Assembly (NCBI GenBank): GCA_052146795.1
Contig: JBKQMH010000175.1
Location: 885 to 64,884, forward strand
Length of the DNA stretch: 64,000 nucleotides
DNA from: Verrucomicrobiia bacterium
GTDB lineage: Bacteria; Verrucomicrobiota; Verrucomicrobiia; Palsa-1439
Reading direction: 5' to 3'
Positions 28,750 through 59,556 of this stretch are shown piece by piece; position 1 is the stretch's first letter, and every line of letters starts with the position of its first letter. Under the pieces are notes generated by a model. It made no database searches, was not told the DNA's origin, and was given only the letters and a program-made list of their open reading frames with translations. The translations under genes were made by a program, and so were the position numbers.

Positions 28750-29235
28750 ATGATTTCAGCTCGTTCGCTTGGTCAGGCAGTCTTGGCCGCACTGGCCTTG
28801 CTCCTCTGCTCCTGCTCGCGGTTTGTCGTCGACCAGGGGAATATCAACCGTGACGCCGTGTCGCGTTGCGTCCGGAATATCGACGCGTGGAAGAAGGACC
28901 TGGCCAAGCTTGAGATGCTTGAGGGAAAGTTTGATCTCATTTCCGATCAGATCCGCCGCGATTACTCGAAAGCCGCTCCGGACGAGAAGAAAAAACTGCG
29001 CGCGCGGTTCGCCGATGTTCTCTCACAGACGGATCAGACCGAGACCGACGCCGACGCGTTATTCCGCGAAATCATCCGGGAGCTGGAATACGTCTCCCGC
29101 GACAAGCGAGCGCGTGCCCGGATCGCCGTGGTGACCACCCCGTTGCGAGACGCCGAAGGTATCCGCACCCCCGAGATCCAATACGCGATGGATGCCGTGT
29201 CCTCCCAGTTGCAGATCCTGCTGCGGGTCGATTAG
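28750..29235 (+). CDS. Putative lipoprotein
   Basis: 161 aa. Signal peptide with lipobox-like LLCSCS. Confidence 0.45.
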   Translation: MISARSLGQAVLAALALLLCSCSRFVVDQGNINRDAVSRCVRNIDAWKKDLAKLEMLEGKFDLISDQIRRDYSKAAPDEKKKLRARFADVLSQTDQTETDADALFREIIRELEYVSRDKRARARIAVVTTPLRDAEGIRTPEIQYAMDAVSSQLQILLRVD

Positions 29236-29347
29236 GCGGGCTGCCGATGATGCGCGCGGCGTCGAGGTGTTTCGTCGTGCCGCAGTTCTGGCACATCCAA
29301 CTGTCCCGCTCCATTACTGCTCTTGTCCAACGTTGATCTTTGTTCAT
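29236..29347 (-). pseudogene. HNH-endonuclease N-terminal remnant (copy 1)
   Basis: Strong RBS AAAGGAGTAGAGCCG-ATG, then MNKDQRWTRAVMERDSWMCQNCG, an HNH-type start (CxxC zinc-knuckle). The remainder diverges and runs into the convergent lipoprotein gene. Confidence 0.4.
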
Positions 29348-29466
29348 CGGCTCTACTCCTTTATTTTGATCGTGGGGAGTAGAGCGGATGAACGGTCGTT
29401 TGTAGCGACGCTGGGGGGTTCTGTCGTTTCCTGTTGCCTGCGTGCGAAGGAGTCGAAGCGATGGGG
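29302..29466. repeat. Imperfect direct repeat copy 1 (about 165 bp; contains HNH remnant start, RBS and upstream region)
   Basis: ccgctccattactgcTcttgTcca...ttgatc..tt...ctcctttNttttgatcgtg...gcgaaggNgt..g.g shared with 30709-30882. Confidence 0.6.
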
Positions 29467-29579
29467 AACCCGCTACTGAGGGAGCTGTGTGATGTTTTTT
29501 GGGATTGCTTCTGCTGTTGGAGAATGCGTAGACTCAGGTTTGTTTCGCCCCGCTTAAAGTTGCCGGAAGGAGAAGCGCA

Positions 29580-30536
29580 ATGAACCACAAAGCTGCGACC
29601 AGTTGGATGTCAATCGTCTGCATCTCGGTTTCTCTGCTCTGTTTCACGCTCCACTGTTTCGCCGGCGATGAAGATGCCCGACAGAAAAAACTCGTTCAGA
29701 AGCTAAATACCATCACGATTCCTGGGCTTAAATATCGTGAGGCAATGCCCTCTGACCTTCTTGCGTTCTTATCGGACGAAAGCAGAAGGCTCGACCCCGA
29801 AAAAGTTGGCGTGAATATCATTTTAGAGGGTGTGATTGACGAAACCAAAGTGACCATATCTGCGAACAACCTGTCGCTGTTTGATGCAGTGAAATACATC
29901 TGCCAATTGGCTGGTCTGACCTATCGCATTGACCCTAACGCAGTGATTATCACCAAAGGGGGCAAAACCGAATCGCTCGCGCAAGTTTCGGAGCTTCCGA
30001 CCAATATAACTGTCAATGGCGACACGTACGAAGATGTGCGCTGGCGACAGGTTACGCCAACAACGGTGACAATTTTCCACAAGACTGGCGTTGCGACCAT
30101 TCCCTTAGCAAGTTTGCCGCCTACTTTGCAGCAAAGATTTGGATACGACCCGCAGAAAGCAGCGGAATTCCAAGCTGCGGAAGATGCGAATGCAGCTAAA
30201 GCCTTAGCATCTAGGGACAGATTTGGACGCGTTTGGCATGTCGCTGAGTATGAGGCCCACAGTTGGTCAGGAGTTTGGGTTCGGCGCGGGAATAGTTTGG
30301 TTTTTGATGCAGAATTAAGAAGCGGTGATGCCCAAATTAACTATGTCGTTATGCTAACTGTGCAAGGCAATACAATTTACGCAGACAGGGTGCAGGACGG
30401 TCATGTTCGTCGCGGCGAAGGCCCGCATTCATACACCTATGTTGGAACAATCAGTGGTAATTCCGTAAGTGGGCGCACGACATTTGGTGACAATCCAAAC
30501 GGTGGTTGGGACTGGTACGCCACAATCGAACAGTGA
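29580..30536 (+). CDS. Secreted hypothetical protein (signal peptide; lower-GC)
   Basis: 318 aa. N-terminal signal peptide. GC about 48%. N-terminal region weakly reminiscent of secretin/TonB N-terminal (STN)-like folds. C-terminal half Gly/Asn-rich. Confidence 0.55.
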   Translation: MNHKAATSWMSIVCISVSLLCFTLHCFAGDEDARQKKLVQKLNTITIPGLKYREAMPSDLLAFLSDESRRLDPEKVGVNIILEGVIDETKVTISANNLSLFDAVKYICQLAGLTYRIDPNAVIITKGGKTESLAQVSELPTNITVNGDTYEDVRWRQVTPTTVTIFHKTGVATIPLASLPPTLQQRFGYDPQKAAEFQAAEDANAAKALASRDRFGRVWHVAEYEAHSWSGVWVRRGNSLVFDAELRSGDAQINYVVMLTVQGNTIYADRVQDGHVRRGEGPHSYTYVGTISGNSVSGRTTFGDNPNGGWDWYATIEQ

Positions 30537-30688
30537 CGTGGCGAAGCACAGCCATCGGCAAATATCGAAAATTCCAAAGGCGATACTAATAAACGTCCCT
30601 TGCGGTCTACGAACAAAAACGATACTCTCGAATGTTTCATCAATTTGGGGTTCGACTCAGGGGGGTCGTGGGTGCCCTGTCAGACGCT

Positions 30689-30751
30689 TTAGCGGCGACA
30701 TGTCCAATTGTACCGCTCCATTACTGCCCTTGCCCATTTTTGATCGTTCAT
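30689..30751 (-). pseudogene. HNH-endonuclease N-terminal remnant (copy 2, truncated after 20 codons)
   Basis: RBS AAAGGAGCCGGCGAGA-ATG, then MNDQKWARAVMERYNWTCRR-stop. Paralogous to copy 1. Confidence 0.35.
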
Positions 30752-30882
30752 TCTCGCCGGCTCCTTTCTTTGATCGTGTCGGGAGCCAGTTAGAGAATGA
30801 ATCACATCGGGGCGACCGTGGGTTTTGGATTGTGCCTTTGGTTGCCGTGCACGCGCGAGCGGCGAAGGCGTGCGGGTTTGGG
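30709..30882. repeat. Imperfect direct repeat copy 2
   Basis: See copy 1. The two copies bracket the secreted-protein gene 29580..30536. Confidence 0.6.
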
Positions 30883-30970
30883 TGTCGCTGTGCGGCGCGT
30901 GCGTGAGTCTGCGAAGGCAGCGATTGACAACTTCTGTAGAGCGGAGTTAAGGTAGGCGGAGGTTAAGGAG

Positions 30971-31438
30971 TTGTGTATGGCATCGGACACCGACCGCGAG
31001 AATCCTGAAAACATCCGGGCTCTTCATTCTGGGCTCGTCGCGAAACGGACGACATTGAACCAGATGATGTGGCAAGCTCCGGTTATATCTCTTACACGCC
31101 AAGCTTTTCTGTTGACCATTGCTTTTGGTGACGGCAAGAACATTTTCTACAGAATCATGAGCGGATTGGTCGCTATGTTAATCGGACTTATGTCTTGCCA
31201 ATTATTCCTGCGACATAAGAAGCTAGAGACTCATGCGACCTGTGAACTGTGCAAATTGGAGAAAGATTACTTCGGGCGGACTTTTCACGAGCGGCCCGAA
31301 AGTGGCCAGTGGCCCCCGTCTGCTTGGATGTCCCACCCCATTTGGAAGTGGGGTCTGATTCTAATCAGCCTAACAGGACTATTTCCATTGTTCGAATATA
31401 TCTGGCGAATTTGGCCGTGCTTGCGGCAGTGCCTTTAA
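30971..31438 (+). CDS. Hypothetical small membrane protein (lower-GC)
   Basis: 155 aa. Two or three hydrophobic helices. No family recognised. Confidence 0.4.
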   Translation: MCMASDTDRENPENIRALHSGLVAKRTTLNQMMWQAPVISLTRQAFLLTIAFGDGKNIFYRIMSGLVAMLIGLMSCQLFLRHKKLETHATCELCKLEKDYFGRTFHERPESGQWPPSAWMSHPIWKWGLILISLTGLFPLFEYIWRIWPCLRQCL

Positions 31439-31517
31439 ACTGGGGTCATGTTGGGTCGTCCTACAGCGGAGCGAGCGTTGAGCAGGTGTCGTTTCCTGCG
31501 ACAGTAGCCAGAGTATG

Positions 31518-34954: not shown

Positions 34955-36166
34955 TCAGATCTTCTTGACCGATGACAGAACTTTGTAGCCGTGATCCTCG
35001 CATTCGACGCGGAAACCGCCAAAACAATCCCGGATCGTGTTCTCGTACGGCAAGCGGACGTTCGCCACAAGGTAGAACCGTCCACCGGGCTTCAACACCT
35101 CCCAGGCATCGCGAATGAACTGGCTGGCGATGTCGAACTCCGCGCGTCGTCCCACGTGAAACGGGGGGTTGGTGACCACGACATCGAAGGACGACGCCTT
35201 CACCGCGCTTCCCGCGTCGCTTGGTAGGACCGTGTAATTGGTCAGCGCATTGGCCTCGACAGATCGCGTTGCCGACCGAATGGCTTCGGCATCGCTGTCG
35301 AGCAGGACCACGTTTCCTCGTATCGTCATCTTCGCGGCCATCAGTCCGACAATTCCATTGCCGCACCCGAGATCCAGCACGGAGTCGCCCGGATTGATTC
35401 GCATTCGTTCCACCAACAGCCGCGTGCCGTCGTCGAGTCGATCCCAGGCAAAGACTCCGGGACGGGAATAAACGGCCGCGGAATTCCCCCCGATCTCCGC
35501 GGAAAATTCCAGAAAGGCCTTGTGGTCAAGCCACTGGACGTTAAGAGCGCTGGAATCAACGGGTGACGAAGTCTTCTTTTCCGAGCGGGCAATCCGATGT
35601 CCGCCGCCGTACCCCATGACCGTTGCATTGCCGAAAAGCTGCCCCATCAGGTCAATCCCCGTCTTGATCCCTTCCCGATTGGCGCCCGCCACATAGCACG
35701 CCCCGCCAACCTGAAGCGCGCGGAAACCGTCCCACAGCAACTGCAACAAGGGAAGACGTCCCTTGGGCAACCGAATCACAACGCAATCGACCGGCTCAGG
35801 CGACGAGAGACCGCACAAGCCATTGGAGAAATGCACCTCAACATTCGTCAACTGATTGGCCTCAACCGTCCGGCGGGCGGCCAGTACATTGACCAGGTTC
35901 CGGTCCGTCATGATGACCGTCGCATTGCTGGCGGTCATCGCCAGCGCCGCGCCCGCCAATCCGGCCCCGGCGTTCAAGTGCAACACGGTCGAGTCCTCCG
36001 CGATATCGACGCGCTCCGCCAGCAACATCAAGGCGGGATCGGGAGTATCCGAACAAGACACCCCCGGTTTCGAGACGAGCTTCACCACCCGCTGACGCAC
36101 CGGTACGTCAACCTGTCTCCACGAATAATATTGTGAATCTTCCTTCAATCTCCCGCCTCGTCGCAT
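34955..36166 (-). CDS. rsmC: rRNA guanine-N2 methyltransferase, RsmC/RlmG family (tandem MTase domains)
   Basis: 403 aa. Two Rossmann halves. C-terminal domain has VLDLGCGNG motif I and NPPFH motif IV. Confidence 0.75.
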   Translation of the reverse strand: MRRGGRLKEDSQYYSWRQVDVPVRQRVVKLVSKPGVSCSDTPDPALMLLAERVDIAEDSTVLHLNAGAGLAGAALAMTASNATVIMTDRNLVNVLAARRTVEANQLTNVEVHFSNGLCGLSSPEPVDCVVIRLPKGRLPLLQLLWDGFRALQVGGACYVAGANREGIKTGIDLMGQLFGNATVMGYGGGHRIARSEKKTSSPVDSSALNVQWLDHKAFLEFSAEIGGNSAAVYSRPGVFAWDRLDDGTRLLVERMRINPGDSVLDLGCGNGIVGLMAAKMTIRGNVVLLDSDAEAIRSATRSVEANALTNYTVLPSDAGSAVKASSFDVVVTNPPFHVGRRAEFDIASQFIRDAWEVLKPGGRFYLVANVRLPYENTIRDCFGGFRVECEDHGYKVLSSVKKI

Positions 36167-36380
36167 TATCGCAGCCCCTCAAAGCGGTTGACGCCGATGG
36201 CGGTCGCGGTCTTCAACGCTTCCCGACGAGTCATGGGTTGGTCGATCATGCTGGAGTCCTCGTCATTTGGAGGGCCACGCTCCGTCGTGGCCGCATTCAC
36301 GGACACTACCGAGTGTGCCGCAGAATCGCAAGCACCCTGAGCTTGCGGAAGGGTCTCTGACCGGCTAAAGTTCGTGCGTC

Positions 36381-37157
36381 ATGCAAAGCGTGCGAGCTAA
36401 GATTCGTGGTGTTGCCCCGATGCTGCAGAAGCCGCGACGAAACTTCACAATTATGAAAGGGGCACTTAAGCAGTCAATCGGGGCAGCTCTAGAGAACGGC
36501 AGAAGGTTGCTACAAGAAGCAGATTACCTGCAGTTCGAAGCGCCACCGGTGACCGCTTACTTTCTGACCGTGATAGCGCAGGAGGAATTCGCCAAGGCGT
36601 TTTTTCTTGATCTGGTTCGACGCGGGGTTGTGCCTTGGAATCGCCACATGCTGCGTACGACGTGTGATCACACATGCAAACAGTTGCTGAGCGTAGTGAT
36701 GGACTATCTCAATCCCGATATAGATGAATTTATCCAGCGGTGCAATGCCGTAGTTCTAAGGGGTGAATTGCGCCCGATACCCACGAGAATTGCCGATGCC
36801 ATCAACATCCTCCGATACGAGAAGATTGGACGATGGGAATCAAAGAATTGGGTTTGGGCGGAGGAACCAGATTATGACTCGCAAGCCCTTTCAGTTGCGG
36901 AGGGAAGGTATGATCGGCTTAAACAGGACGCGATTTATGTACGACTGGGCCCGAACGGTCAACTGGTTAGTTCACCTCTACGCGCAAACGTCGGTAAAGC
37001 GTTAGAGGCTGAAACGGATCGAGCTAGACGACTAGGTCAGTTGGTCGAAACGATGTTCGAAGATTCGGCACACCTAGGACTGGACTATGACAAGGTGGAA
37101 GGTGCGCTTCGGTTGTTGTTTACAAACGTCCAGCAGCCCGCAGAATCTGATGACTAG
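36381..37157 (+). CDS. AbiV-family abortive-infection-like protein
   Basis: N-terminal region ALENGRRLLQEADYLQFEAPPVTAYFLTVIAQEEFAKAFFL matches the conserved AbiV start (ENA..LL.DA..L...g.y..A..L...A.EE.gK). Lower GC (about 50%). Start could be at an internal Met (36420 or 36453). Confidence 0.5.
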   Translation: MQSVRAKIRGVAPMLQKPRRNFTIMKGALKQSIGAALENGRRLLQEADYLQFEAPPVTAYFLTVIAQEEFAKAFFLDLVRRGVVPWNRHMLRTTCDHTCKQLLSVVMDYLNPDIDEFIQRCNAVVLRGELRPIPTRIADAINILRYEKIGRWESKNWVWAEEPDYDSQALSVAEGRYDRLKQDAIYVRLGPNGQLVSSPLRANVGKALEAETDRARRLGQLVETMFEDSAHLGLDYDKVEGALRLLFTNVQQPAESDD

Positions 37158-37342
37158 AACTGTGTCCATCAACACTCCAGTCGTAGGTCGCGTCAGACGA
37201 CGGTCTCATGCTCGTACATCTGCTGGCACTATGCCAACACGAGCGGTTGCTGGTAAGCGTGTCCAGTGGTGGAAGAGCTCGACCGCCGGACCCTCGCCGC
37301 CAAACCCCCACCGCAGAATACCCGAGGAACAACCCTGCCATT

Positions 37343-38311
37343 CTACCGACGGCGCGAAGCTTGTTCCTTCGACTTCTGCACAGATTCCCTCCATTTTCGC
37401 CTGAAACCCAACGTGCCCAAGTCATTTTGAATCTCCAACAGAAGTAGTGGCGCGTTGATATTAGCTGGAGGCCGCATATGTTCCGATACTCGAACTCGAA
37501 TATTCAGCCGCCGTCTCTCCAAAATCACCGAAATTGCGGAATGCAGTGAATCGTTCACCCAGGTTGAGTTGAACGGACTGAGGATGATTTCCCTAACTAA
37601 CTTTTGCGCCGAGACACCGATAGAGCTTCCTAGCTCACTTCTCGCCCAAGCGCTTTCGGGGAGTTCGTGGCAGATTCGCACTTCTTTCTCATGTCTAAAA
37701 GCGCTTCGTTTAAGCATCCAAGGGTGGTCTTTGTAAAATTGTGGAAGACGTGAAAGCTTAGAGTTGCCGACGTACCGCACCGGCGCTACCAAATACTCCT
37801 GCGGATCGTACGAGGTAATCAAATTCGAATACTGACCCTTCAAAGAGGATGCCAGTCGCCCAACTGTACTAACGAGAGCGACACCGAGCCGATCTGCATA
37901 CACTTTCCACATCGCGTCCGACTCTTCGTCGCCCAGGTACCAGCAGCTGCAAACAATGCGCTGCCTGAATTTACGCATCTCCATGTCCAGAATACAGTTT
38001 TGAAGTGCAACGCCCTTCAGCTTGTCAATCACCTCGAAGAAGTCTTCGCGCAAATCGCCATCGTTGCATCTGAAGTTGGAGTACGGTAAATACTTGCTAA
38101 GGTCGATAGCTAAACCTCGGAGCTTCTTCGTGTTTCTCTCCTTGCATCTGCTTCGGATCACGAATCCCGATTCAAAGGGATCAGTCTGTGCAAGCGTTTC
38201 AACCTTTGGGAAAAAAGTGCGGTCCCGGAGTAGCAAGTCAAAAAGCTTTGGGAGGTCAACAAATCGCCGTACCAAGGCGCTTTTGGGGAGGCCGACAATT
38301 TTCACTTTCAT
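37343..38311 (-). CDS. DUF2971-like hypothetical protein (defence-island associated family)
   Basis: Start MKVKIVGLPKS at 38311. ORF-track 5' extension is Arg-rich junk. C-terminal FRHEKEVRI resembles the conserved DUF2971 Y/F-x-x-E-x-E-W/V-R motif. GC about 47%. Confidence 0.45.
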   Translation of the reverse strand: MKVKIVGLPKSALVRRFVDLPKLFDLLLRDRTFFPKVETLAQTDPFESGFVIRSRCKERNTKKLRGLAIDLSKYLPYSNFRCNDGDLREDFFEVIDKLKGVALQNCILDMEMRKFRQRIVCSCWYLGDEESDAMWKVYADRLGVALVSTVGRLASSLKGQYSNLITSYDPQEYLVAPVRYVGNSKLSRLPQFYKDHPWMLKRSAFRHEKEVRICHELPESAWARSELGSSIGVSAQKLVREIILSPFNSTWVNDSLHSAISVILERRRLNIRVRVSEHMRPPANINAPLLLLEIQNDLGTLGFRRKWRESVQKSKEQASRRR

Positions 38312-38388
38312 TGCGCTAGCACAACCTATTTTTGAGACCCAACGGGATCTCGTAGATTGCAACCTCTTGAGCTTGTTCCCCGTGCGGC

Positions 38389-39876
38389 TCAATATTGCGG
38401 CACGTTCGGATCGATCCGCTCGGCCCACGCGTTGATGCCCCCGGCGACGTTCTTGAGTTTGCCGTAGCCCTGCGAGCGAAGAAACTTCAGCGCCCGGCCG
38501 CTGCGGCCGCCGGACTTGCAGTGCAGGACGAGGAGCTTGTCCTTGGGCAGTTCTTGGAACCGCTGCGGCAATTCGGGCAGCGGGAGCTTCACCGAGCCGT
38601 CGATGGTGCAGATGGCGAACTCGTCGGGATTGCGCACGTCCACAAGCACGAAATCCTGTTTCGCATCGCGCATTTTCTTGAGTGTCTCGACACTGATATC
38701 GTCGGGACCGAGGCCTTCGTCTTTGGTTTCCACGATGGAATCTCCTGATGAACCACCTTCCTCGCCGCGGCCAATGCCGCAGAATTCGAGGTAATCGATC
38801 AATTTGGTAATGGTCGGATTCTTGCCGCACACGGGGCAATTCGGGTCACGCGGGATTTTGTACTCGCGGAAACTCATGTCCATCGCGTCGAACCGCAGCA
38901 ACCGCCCCATCAGCGGTTTGCCCTTGCCGATGATGAGTTTGACCGCTTCGTTCGCCTGAATGTTGCCGATAATGCCGCAAATGACGCCCAGCACGCCGCC
39001 TTCCGCGCAGCTCGGCACGAGGCCGGGCGGAGGAGGTTCGGGATACCAGCAGCGGTAGCATGGTCCGCCGAGATGCGGCGCGAACACGCTGGCCATGCCT
39101 TCCCAGCGGAAAATCGAGCCGTACACGTTCGGCTTCTTCAGCATCACACACGCGTCATTGACCAGATACCGCGTCGGAAAATTGTCCGTGCCGTCGATAA
39201 CCAGATCGTAGTCCTTGATGATGTCGAGCGCGTTGTCGCTGGTGATCTTCACGGGGTGGGGGATGAAATTCAGGTTCGGGTTGATCGCCTTGAGTTTTTC
39301 CTCGGCGCTCTTGAGCTTGTGTTTGCCCACGTCGCCCGTGAAATGAATGATCTGACGCTGCAGATTGCTGAAATCGACCGTGTCGAACTCGACCATGCCA
39401 ATCGTGCCCACGCCCGCCGCCGTGAGATATAGCGCAATCGGCGAACCGAGTCCGCCCGAGCCGATGAGCAGCACCTTCGCCGCCTTGAGCCGCTCCTGAC
39501 CTTCCATGCCGACTTCCGGCAGGATCAAATGGCGCGAATAGCGTTTGATCTCTTCGTTGGTCAGCTTCGCGCGGTCTTTGATGATCGGATCGAGTTTCGC
39601 GAGGTTTCCGCCCGCGATTGACGGCACAATGGAGATTTCATCGCCTTCCTTGACTTGCGCGTCATCACCTTTGGCGCGGATGTCCTCGTCGTTGACGTAG
39701 ACCCGTACGAAATTGCGGAGCTTGCCGTCATCGCCGTACAGATGGGGACGCAGTTGCGCATGCTCAGCGGTCAGGTTGCCCAGCACTTCGCTGATCGTCC
39801 CGCCGGGCACTTCGACCGTCGCTTGCCCATTGGCAAAACGCCGGAGCGCTGTTGGTATCGTGACTTTAATGGCCAT
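38389..39876 (-). CDS. moeZ: Tri-domain fusion: MoaD/ThiS/CysO-like sulfur carrier (ends in GG) + MoeB/ThiF/MoeZ E1-like adenylyltransferase + C-terminal rhodanese
   Basis: 495 aa. N-terminal about 90 aa beta-grasp ending ...SIVPSIAGG, then E1 domain (LLIGSGGLGSP, CxxC pairs), then rhodanese with active Cys (LHCKSGGRSGRA). Confidence 0.85.
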   Translation of the reverse strand: MAIKVTIPTALRRFANGQATVEVPGGTISEVLGNLTAEHAQLRPHLYGDDGKLRNFVRVYVNDEDIRAKGDDAQVKEGDEISIVPSIAGGNLAKLDPIIKDRAKLTNEEIKRYSRHLILPEVGMEGQERLKAAKVLLIGSGGLGSPIALYLTAAGVGTIGMVEFDTVDFSNLQRQIIHFTGDVGKHKLKSAEEKLKAINPNLNFIPHPVKITSDNALDIIKDYDLVIDGTDNFPTRYLVNDACVMLKKPNVYGSIFRWEGMASVFAPHLGGPCYRCWYPEPPPPGLVPSCAEGGVLGVICGIIGNIQANEAVKLIIGKGKPLMGRLLRFDAMDMSFREYKIPRDPNCPVCGKNPTITKLIDYLEFCGIGRGEEGGSSGDSIVETKDEGLGPDDISVETLKKMRDAKQDFVLVDVRNPDEFAICTIDGSVKLPLPELPQRFQELPKDKLLVLHCKSGGRSGRALKFLRSQGYGKLKNVAGGINAWAERIDPNVPQY

Positions 39877-58691: not shown

Positions 58692-58770
58692 GGCCTGGTC
58701 GCTCGCCCTCAAGGTCAACCCCGATTCGGCGGTCGTAGACCGCGGCGACATGGTTTGGTATAGTCGCGGC

Positions 58771-59556
58771 ATGTCGATACATCCGACAGCCATTATCAGT
58801 CCGAAGGCGGAATTGGATTCGTCCGTCGAGGTGGGGCCGAACGTGATCATCGAAGAGCACGTGAAGGTCGGCGCGGGGACGCGGATCTGGGCGAATGCGT
58901 ATCTGACGGGCCACACGGAGATCGGGCACGACAACGAAATCCACATGGGCGCGGTGATCGGGCATGAACCGCAGGACCTGAAGTTTGACCGGTCGCGGCG
59001 GACCTACCTGCGCATCGGCGACCGCAATGTGTTTCGCGAATACTGCAACATCCACCGCGGGACGGAACCGGAATCGGCGACCGTCATCGGTAACGGGTGT
59101 TACATCATGGCCACGGCGCATGTCGGCCACAACTGCGTGATCGGCGACCACGTGATTATCTGCAATTGCGCGCTGGTGGCGGGCCACGTGCACGTGGGCG
59201 ACCGCGCGTTCATTTCGGGCGGCGTGGTGATCCACCAATTCACGCACGTGGGACGATTGGCGATGTTTTCCGGGAATGCGCGGGTGTCGATGGACGTGCC
59301 GCCGTTCACGCTGGCGGCGGAGCGCAACGAGATCCACGCGCTGAACCTGGTCGGCCTGCGGCGAGCGAAGATTTCCCGGGAAGCGCTCGCCGAATTGAAA
59401 AAGCTCTATCAGATGTTTTATCTCTCGGGGATGAACGGCACGCAGGCGTTGACGGAAGCGACACGGGACGGGGCGTTCACCACGCTCGAAGCGCGGGAGT
59501 TCATCGAATTCGTGCGGAACTCGCCGAATGGGATTTGTCCCCCGGCGCGGGCGTGA
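58771..59556 (+). CDS. lpxA: Acyl-ACP--UDP-N-acetylglucosamine O-acyltransferase
   Basis: Start MSIHPTAIISPKAEL. Left-handed beta-helix hexapeptide repeats and LpxA C-terminal helical domain. Confidence 0.88.
   Translation: MSIHPTAIISPKAELDSSVEVGPNVIIEEHVKVGAGTRIWANAYLTGHTEIGHDNEIHMGAVIGHEPQDLKFDRSRRTYLRIGDRNVFREYCNIHRGTEPESATVIGNGCYIMATAHVGHNCVIGDHVIICNCALVAGHVHVGDRAFISGGVVIHQFTHVGRLAMFSGNARVSMDVPPFTLAAERNEIHALNLVGLRRAKISREALAELKKLYQMFYLSGMNGTQALTEATRDGAFTTLEAREFIEFVRNSPNGICPPARA

Follow-up and report, generated by a model that had tools for sequence, protein, structure and literature searches.

A variable slot downstream of moeZ in an uncultured Verrucomicrobiia bacterium, probably occupied by independently acquired AbiV-family and DUF2971-like genes

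Do two toxin-type genes that lie side by side in DNA of foreign composition work together, or have they merely come to rest at the same place? The question is raised by a 64-kb stretch of the genome of an uncultured Verrucomicrobiia bacterium (called the window in the following; the name of the lineage is carried by an identical MoeZ protein), in which positions 36381..38311 contain two convergent open reading frames (ORFs), gene A on the plus strand and gene B on the minus strand, with stop codons 185 nt apart. A first-pass annotation, whose positions and convergent orientation of the two ORFs were correct, had interpreted them as a two-gene anti-phage module formed by an AbiV-like and a DUF2971-like protein. 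The analysis described here favors a different explanation. The slot downstream of moeZ is variable, and its two occupants are probably self-contained defence genes of the toxin type that were acquired independently, rather than a two-gene system. Both genes are separate members of known single-gene anti-phage family types.

Co-occurrence of the two families was examined from both sides. The genome loci anchored on B came from a scan of one genome per species, which yielded 80 loci including flanks of at most 10 kb, and A-family genes were detected with a hidden Markov model (HMM) built from 120 A homologs, which scored 2e-104 on the window as a positive control. None of the 80 loci contained an A-family gene at E<=1e-3, the best score being E 0.046, and the same was true of 80 viral-contig loci with B-like genes (0/80) and of the other B-anchored loci. 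In the reverse direction, no B-family ORF was present in any of 80 A-anchored metagenome loci (514 kb), even at E<=10. A Pfam scan of the neighbors, aimed at distant AbiV relatives and covering the nearest ORF of up to 420 aa per side, revealed no recurrent partner family among 98 ORFs flanking 80 B-like genes; among the 25 most frequent families listed, the commonest was phage integrase, with three members, followed by AbiJ, HepT, DDE transposase and others with at most two. The absence of co-occurrence in three sets of 80 loci, together with a relative that carries B without A at the same site, does not support a partnership; A and B are probably two separate arrivals. That the two families might never be found together elsewhere had been named in the first-pass annotation as speaking against the module, and in the loci examined this is what was found.

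The relative with B and without A is a 2.3-kb metagenome contig (L082), the B protein of which is 91% identical to that of the window and whose moeZ is 88% identical at the nucleotide level. Along the contig, the 3' end of moeZ comes first, followed by B, a spacer of 69 nt, what is left of the 5' part of rsmC (degraded, 75% identity, reading frame broken) and lpxA. The 69 nt replace window positions 36192..37320, which encompass A with its leader and trailer; in the blastn alignment, contig positions 1601-1690 correspond to 37410-37321 of the window and positions 1760-1897 to 36191-36053. Since the contig lacks the A segment, B is kept at this site without A. In two more distant relatives, in which MoeZ is 86-87% identical, moeZ directly precedes lpxA, at distances of 144 nt and 3 nt. 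This contiguous arrangement, observed in L173 and L259-261, is an empty site for both A and B and bears out the expectation that such a site would be found in relatives. In another relative (L172, MoeZ 90% identical), the site downstream of moeZ contains a DUF6306 gene, type I hsdM fragments, a Fic toxin with a MazE-like antitoxin and an IS200/605 transposase. The cysM-mec-moeZ neighborhood of close relatives collects toxin-antitoxin (TA) and mobile genes, and the site is a small hotspot at which toxin or defence cargo has come and gone. The adjacency of A and B is probably the product of such repeated insertion and loss. Positions 5190-5910 of L173 hold three small genes, one of them ParE-like, between mec and moeZ.

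The slot is also a place of rearrangement, as lpxA lies next to moeZ or moeZ-B in the relatives and 21 kb away, in inverted orientation, in the window. This placement of lpxA points to an inversion or a rearrangement, one breakpoint of which is located immediately downstream of B. The junctions of L082 fall at positions 37321 and 58735 of the window. A 99.8%-identical contig of a metagenome-assembled genome (MAG) (L170, GCA_052147155.1) follows the window up to about codon 94 of B (window position 38031) and then diverges; either B is disrupted in that strain or the end of the contig is chimeric. The complete locus with A and B is present in two MAG assemblies at 99.9% identity.

The base composition of both genes is foreign to their surroundings. 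Their GC contents are 0.51 (A) and 0.50 (B), compared with a window mean of 0.587 and about 0.58-0.64 in the flanks. The low GC content reported by the first-pass annotation is therefore real, with values slightly above the 47-50% given there; the surrounding core block, put there at about 62% GC, is not uniform at that value. The contrast is clearer at third codon positions (GC3), where A and B have values of 0.53 and 0.57 and rsmC, moeZ, mec, cysM, the rhodanese gene and lpxA have values of 0.71-0.82, in agreement with horizontal acquisition into a core block. The Pfam assignments of the flanking genes, obtained on the identical NCBI contig, are a tandem-MTS RsmC-like methyltransferase on one side and ThiS-ThiF-Rhodanese (MoaD-MoeZ), Prok-JAB (Mec) and PALP (CysM) on the other, and agree with an insert located between rsmC and moaD-moeZ-mec-cysM. 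The start codons of rsmC and A, which are divergent, are 253 nt apart (A counted from M14, see below). B is encoded on the same strand as moeZ, its start lying 77 nt beyond the moeZ stop codon, and because it is co-oriented with cysM-mec-moeZ it may be transcribed by read-through.

The product of gene A surpasses the cut-offs of Pfam HEPN_AbiV (PF18728; 31.3 bits, cut-off 27.1, aa 33-215) and of NCBIfam TIGR04498 (AbiV_defense; 30.1 bits, cut-off 27), and the AbiV signature that had been read from its N-terminal region is real. A start at M14 (position 36420) is favored by the homolog alignments and by one of two NCBI gene calls, and an 11-bp hairpin at 36369-36400 that spans the first ATG (36381) argues against initiation there. 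More than 210 clusters of homologs were found, nearly all with PF18728 and typically 225-250 aa long; the clade is environmental and extends over Verrucomicrobia, Proteobacteria and Actinobacteria, and relatives of A were absent from the viral contigs searched. In 37 aligned homologs the arginine of the R-x4-H motif is at least 90% conserved and the histidine is invariant; a helix with the pattern QEE-AK-F near the N-terminus is also conserved. A adopts the four-helix HEPN fold and is, with this fold, its family and the conserved Rx4H pair, probably an AbiV-family HEPN RNase. Sequence searches of the PDB with the profiles of the A and B families gave no useful match.

Several A-family genes are located directly downstream of, or adjoin, genes for large SMC-type ATPases with Lamassu LmuB as the best PADLOC match (down to 1.8e-32), for example L157 5090-7879, L135/L136 7641-9914, L132 2-1117 and L095 11015-13483. 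These cases suggest that AbiV-like HEPN proteins are effectors of Lamassu-like systems in some genomes; the cluster of 17 loci with an SMC protein near an A homolog is partly inflated by coiled-coil similarity. An SMC-like partner was considered for A itself and rejected, as the LmuB-like ATPases occur upstream of some homologs and the window encodes none in the vicinity of A.

Lactococcal AbiV is a metal-independent HEPN RNase that requires an upstream RNA antitoxin; abiV2 is situated upstream of abiV1, and the two form a type III TA system (bioRxiv 10.1101/2024.05.05.592566). The premise of the first-pass annotation that AbiV acts alone or with the phage protein SaV is thereby dated, and a corresponding RNA was sought in the leader of A. 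The leader (z = -1.46) and the trailer (z = -0.82) do not fold into structures significantly more stable than those of shuffled sequences, the leader has no match in Rfam and is not conserved at the nucleotide level in the sequences upstream of 75 homologs, and its sole notable structure is the hairpin mentioned above, just 5' of position 36420. By its position the leader is a candidate for an abiV2-like RNA. The A segment contains a 19-nt imperfect inverted repeat, complementary at 16 of 19 positions, with arms 7 nt and 33 nt inside the ends of the segment. The 64 kb contain no copies other than these two arms, where 0.03 would be expected, and 3-7 of 2000 controls reach as high a score. The idea that A cassettes are generally flanked by inverted repeats was dismissed, since only 11% of 45 loci contained them at p<=0.05; given this rarity at A-family loci, the repeat in the window is an isolated observation.

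Gene B begins with MKVKI, a start common to all 41 aligned homologs; a longer ORF that reaches position 38839 overlaps moeZ and is an artefact. The DUF2971 assignment of the first-pass annotation was right as to relationship and fell short of formal membership. The score of B with Pfam DUF2971 (PF11185) is 18.7 bits, below the cut-off of 22 (E 0.0044), with the whole 89-position model aligned. The PADLOC comparison that had been proposed yielded a partial match to PDC-S31 (E 1.9e-16, 58 bits; aa 113-259 of B, profile positions 66-218 of 245), and phrog_34615 matched with 3.8e-18. A tblastn search of plasmids with B retrieved genes annotated as DUF2971 domain-containing proteins with 24-32% identity. 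A word-indexed search found 48 homologs, mostly in Verrucomicrobiota MAGs and in peat and soil metagenomes, and a full HMMER scan with the B-family profile recovered 66 clusters at E<=1e-30, 5468 at <=1e-10 and 9843 at <=1e-3. In the tier just below the close B clade, DUF2971 was the best Pfam family in all ten proteins tested, seven of them above the cut-off. B is placed in the DUF2971 superfamily because of the match to PDC-S31, the plasmid-encoded DUF2971 genes and the reach of its profile to DUF2971 proteins; judged by these sequence relationships, it is a sub-threshold member and forms there a compact, divergent clade. In Verrucomicrobia the clade comprises roughly 35-45 clusters at 50% identity.

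DUF2971 proteins have been predicted to be ADP-ribosyltransferases (ARTs) related to DarT and AbiGi, with a conserved tyrosine and an ExE motif (PMC12522546), and the motif pattern of B agrees with this description. B has a DarT-like ART fold with the tyrosine of motif II and the ExE of motif III. The motif FRHEKEVRI (aa 205-213), from which the first-pass annotation derived the family, is nearly invariant in the B family and contains E208-x-E210; E208, E210, R16 and Y138 are each at least 90% conserved, and C121, C123, W124 and the sequence SDAMW are invariant. A comparison with the 91%-identical homolog gave a ratio of nonsynonymous to synonymous substitution rates (dN/dS) of 0.13, which indicates purifying selection.

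The main point of interest is the B clade itself, a DarT-like enzyme encoded singly and repeatedly inside or right after essential operons. In two divergent genomes, homologs 62-66% identical to B are located between nuoL and nuoM, co-oriented, tightly packed and with no A gene, the stop codon of the B homolog overlapping the start of nuoM. The same nuo operons contain other insertions: nuoH and nuoI are separated by an IS200-like Y1 transposase gene, nuoF and nuoG by a gene for a 299-aa protein, and a Cdd1-like gene is also present. Some more distant homologs have NERD and SMC ATPase genes or a ParE TA pair as neighbors, and one is located between a DUF4258 TA pair and ribH, which it precedes by 12 nt. 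Phage and prophage contigs as well as plasmids carry distant relatives. A DarG macrodomain antitoxin is not encoded next to B, where the neighbors are MoeZ and AbiV and the spacers of 77 nt and 185 nt accommodate no further ORF, and no macrodomain is among the families listed for the neighbors of B-like genes. The B clade might be one of solo DarT-like ADP-ribosyltransferases without a DarG-type antitoxin, each present as a single promoter-less gene in or after an essential operon (nuoL|nuoM, moeZ|lpxA, upstream of ribH) and tied to housekeeping transcription, a proposal that we regard as doubtful, with the odds clearly against it. If true, B would be a toxin or defence gene that hitchhikes in operons and carries its own means of control, the expression or retention of which is linked to housekeeping transcription.

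How the two proteins might act can be derived from their relatives, as both belong to families tied to abortive infection and defence, in accordance with the first-pass annotation. By analogy to lactococcal AbiV, A would form a dimer that cleaves rRNA once a phage is sensed and thereby aborts the infection, and it may be restrained by an RNA from its own 228-nt leader. B, by analogy to Aristaios and DarT, would use NAD+ to ADP-ribosylate DNA, RNA or a protein target and so halt replication. Each of the two would stop the growth of the infected cell. The self-control of B could reside in two parts that DarT lacks, a helical insert at aa 37-118 and an extension of the C-terminus at aa 250-322.

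Several points weigh against two independent defence genes as the explanation. Anti-phage activity of A and B in Verrucomicrobia is suggested only by their family membership, PDC-S31 is a candidate family with no tested member, and B is too distant from Aristaios for a direct sequence match, Lactococcus not being among the named genera of the tblastn search. For the leader RNA of A, position is the single line of support. The relative without A is a single 2.3-kb metagenome contig with a broken rsmC remnant and could be partially mis-assembled. As regards co-occurrence, very remote AbiV relatives would escape the HMM of the A family, the Pfam scan of the neighbors was confined to the ORFs and families given above, and functional synergy in this one lineage is compatible with the lack of co-occurrence elsewhere.

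In the reading of the first-pass annotation, A and B would be one co-functional abortive-infection module, perhaps composed of a sensor or antitoxin and an effector or of mutually regulating convergent transcripts. Their convergent adjacency at 185 nt, their shared low GC content and the intactness of both in three near-identical assemblies suit such a module. It is nevertheless extremely improbable in view of 240 anchored loci without co-occurrence, the retention of B without A at the same site in L082, and members of each family that work without the other. Moreover, a 75%-identical A homolog (P0002) has a convergent neighbor not found among the B homologs, the GC3 values of A and B differ slightly, and the A segment has boundaries of its own. 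For DUF2971, an active single-gene representative of this kind is Aristaios (PMC11381338). The purifying selection on B, the conservation of catalytic motifs in both proteins, the experimentally active anti-phage members of both families and the lack of a visible cognate antitoxin gene for B make it unlikely that A and B are selfish, addiction-type genes or relics without an anti-phage role that are hard to lose or not yet decayed. Consistent with selfish genes are the company of B relatives, TA modules (ParE, DUF4258, Fic) and insertion sequence (IS) elements rather than classical large defence islands, the candidate status of PDC-S31, and the contig that departs from B after about codon 94.

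The tight, co-oriented packing of close B homologs in the nuo operon of two divergent genomes with a stop codon that overlaps the nuoM start, the 77 nt between moeZ and B on the same strand, and the homolog 12 nt before ribH could also mean that the proteins of the B clade are ADP-ribosyltransferases that are embedded in operons and serve the host, for example in the regulation of respiration or sulfur metabolism. Arguing against this possibility are the variation of the host operon from case to case, the absence of B from close relatives, its foreign composition, the distant relatives in phage or prophage contigs and plasmids, and the unrelated insertions (IS200-like gene, Cdd1 gene) that share the same nuo operons; a host function is therefore very unlikely. 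The explanation as two independently acquired, self-contained defence genes removes a false lead, as adjacency at this locus does not mean partnership. It also makes the locus a natural example of a defence/toxin integration slot in uncultured Verrucomicrobiia, in which the empty, B-only, A+B and other-cargo states are all visible, and extends AbiV HEPN RNases and DUF2971 ADP-ribosyltransferases to a phylum in which neither has been studied. The compact B clade, with no visible antitoxin and often inside core operons, is suited to the study of how a solo DarT-like enzyme is silenced.

Table 1. Coordinates of the locus and of the corresponding regions in relatives (window positions unless a contig is named)
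Feature	Position	Strand	Remarks
1129-nt segment with gene A	36192..37320		69 nt in its place in L082 (blastn); nearly fills the gap between rsmC start and B stop
Gene A, AbiV-family HEPN protein, 245 aa from M14	36420..37157	+	longest ORF from 36381, 258 aa
Rx4H motif RTTCDH of A	36654-36671	+	aa 92-97
N-terminal AQEEFAKAF helix of A	36576-36602	+	
228-nt leader within the A segment	36192..36419	+	hairpin around 36369-36400; candidate position of an abiV2-like RNA antitoxin
Left arm of 19-nt imperfect inverted repeat	36199..36217	+	near one end of the A segment
Right arm of 19-nt imperfect inverted repeat	37269..37287	-	near the other end of the A segment
Gene B, divergent DUF2971 / PDC-S31-like ADP-ribosyltransferase-fold protein, 322 aa	37343..38311	-	
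Motifs of B	R16 in 38246-38269; VCSCW 37940-37954; ESDAMWKVY 37898-37924; FRHEKEVRI (ExE) 37673-37699	-	
moeZ-B spacer, 77 nt	38312..38388	-	same layout in L082
MoaD-MoeZ fusion (ThiS-ThiF-Rhodanese)	38389..39876	-	core gene bounding the variable slot on one side
RsmC/RlmG-like tandem-MTS methyltransferase	34955..36166	-	core gene, opposite boundary in the window genome
lpxA	58750..59556	+	21 kb away in the other orientation; in relatives directly after moeZ or moeZ-B
B homologs embedded between nuoL and nuoM	L083-L087, e.g. L083 10001-10987, L087 10001-10987		
Cargo region of L172	7577-11955		
Departure region of L170	4315-4561		runs into an unrelated minus-strand ORF

A second patch of low GC content (0.49-0.53) is located 5 kb upstream, at window positions 29200-31450. 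Its ORFs (29580-30536, 30469-30906 and 30971-31438) have GC3 values of 0.50-0.57; the patch contains no PADLOC match and no defence genes, and the sole Pfam match is a weak STN domain.

Among known systems, A is related to AbiV of Lactococcus (abiV1/abiV2; PF18728, TIGR04498) solely by a remote sequence match at the family level. The lactococcal system has the abiV2 RNA, of which none is recognizable at A, and A belongs to a large environmental clade, some members of which are encoded directly downstream of LmuB-like SMC ATPases. B and DarT share a sequence identity of only 9-13%; B is about 110 residues longer owing to the helical insert and the C-terminal extension, and in DarTG the macrodomain antitoxin DarG is encoded adjacent to the toxin, whereas B has no such gene next to it. 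The best library match to B, PDC-S31, is one of 145 untested single-gene candidates defined by their embedding in known systems (bioRxiv 10.1101/2024.01.29.577857); a literature search for the name PDC-S31 gave no result. The match corresponds to the ART core, beginning with motif II and ending past the ExE motif, and is partial, with 153 of 245 profile positions aligned and the N- and C-terminal parts of B outside. PDC families are embedded in restriction-modification, BREX or DISARM systems, unlike the B locus. A parallel in organization is Aristaios, a lactococcal DUF2971 protein of 316 aa with an ART fold that is an experimentally active single-gene Abi-type system (PMC11381338). Aristaios is encoded on a lactococcal plasmid and B on the chromosome beside core operons, the host phyla differ, and B scores below the DUF2971 cut-off; in the tblastn search of 72,556 plasmids, Lactococcus was not among the ten named genera matched by B (four minor genera were unnamed, and the Aristaios sequence was not compared directly). 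B and Aristaios are alike in being encoded by a single gene without a partner, and both are DUF2971-type proteins of about 320 aa that are predicted to fold as ADP-ribosyltransferases.

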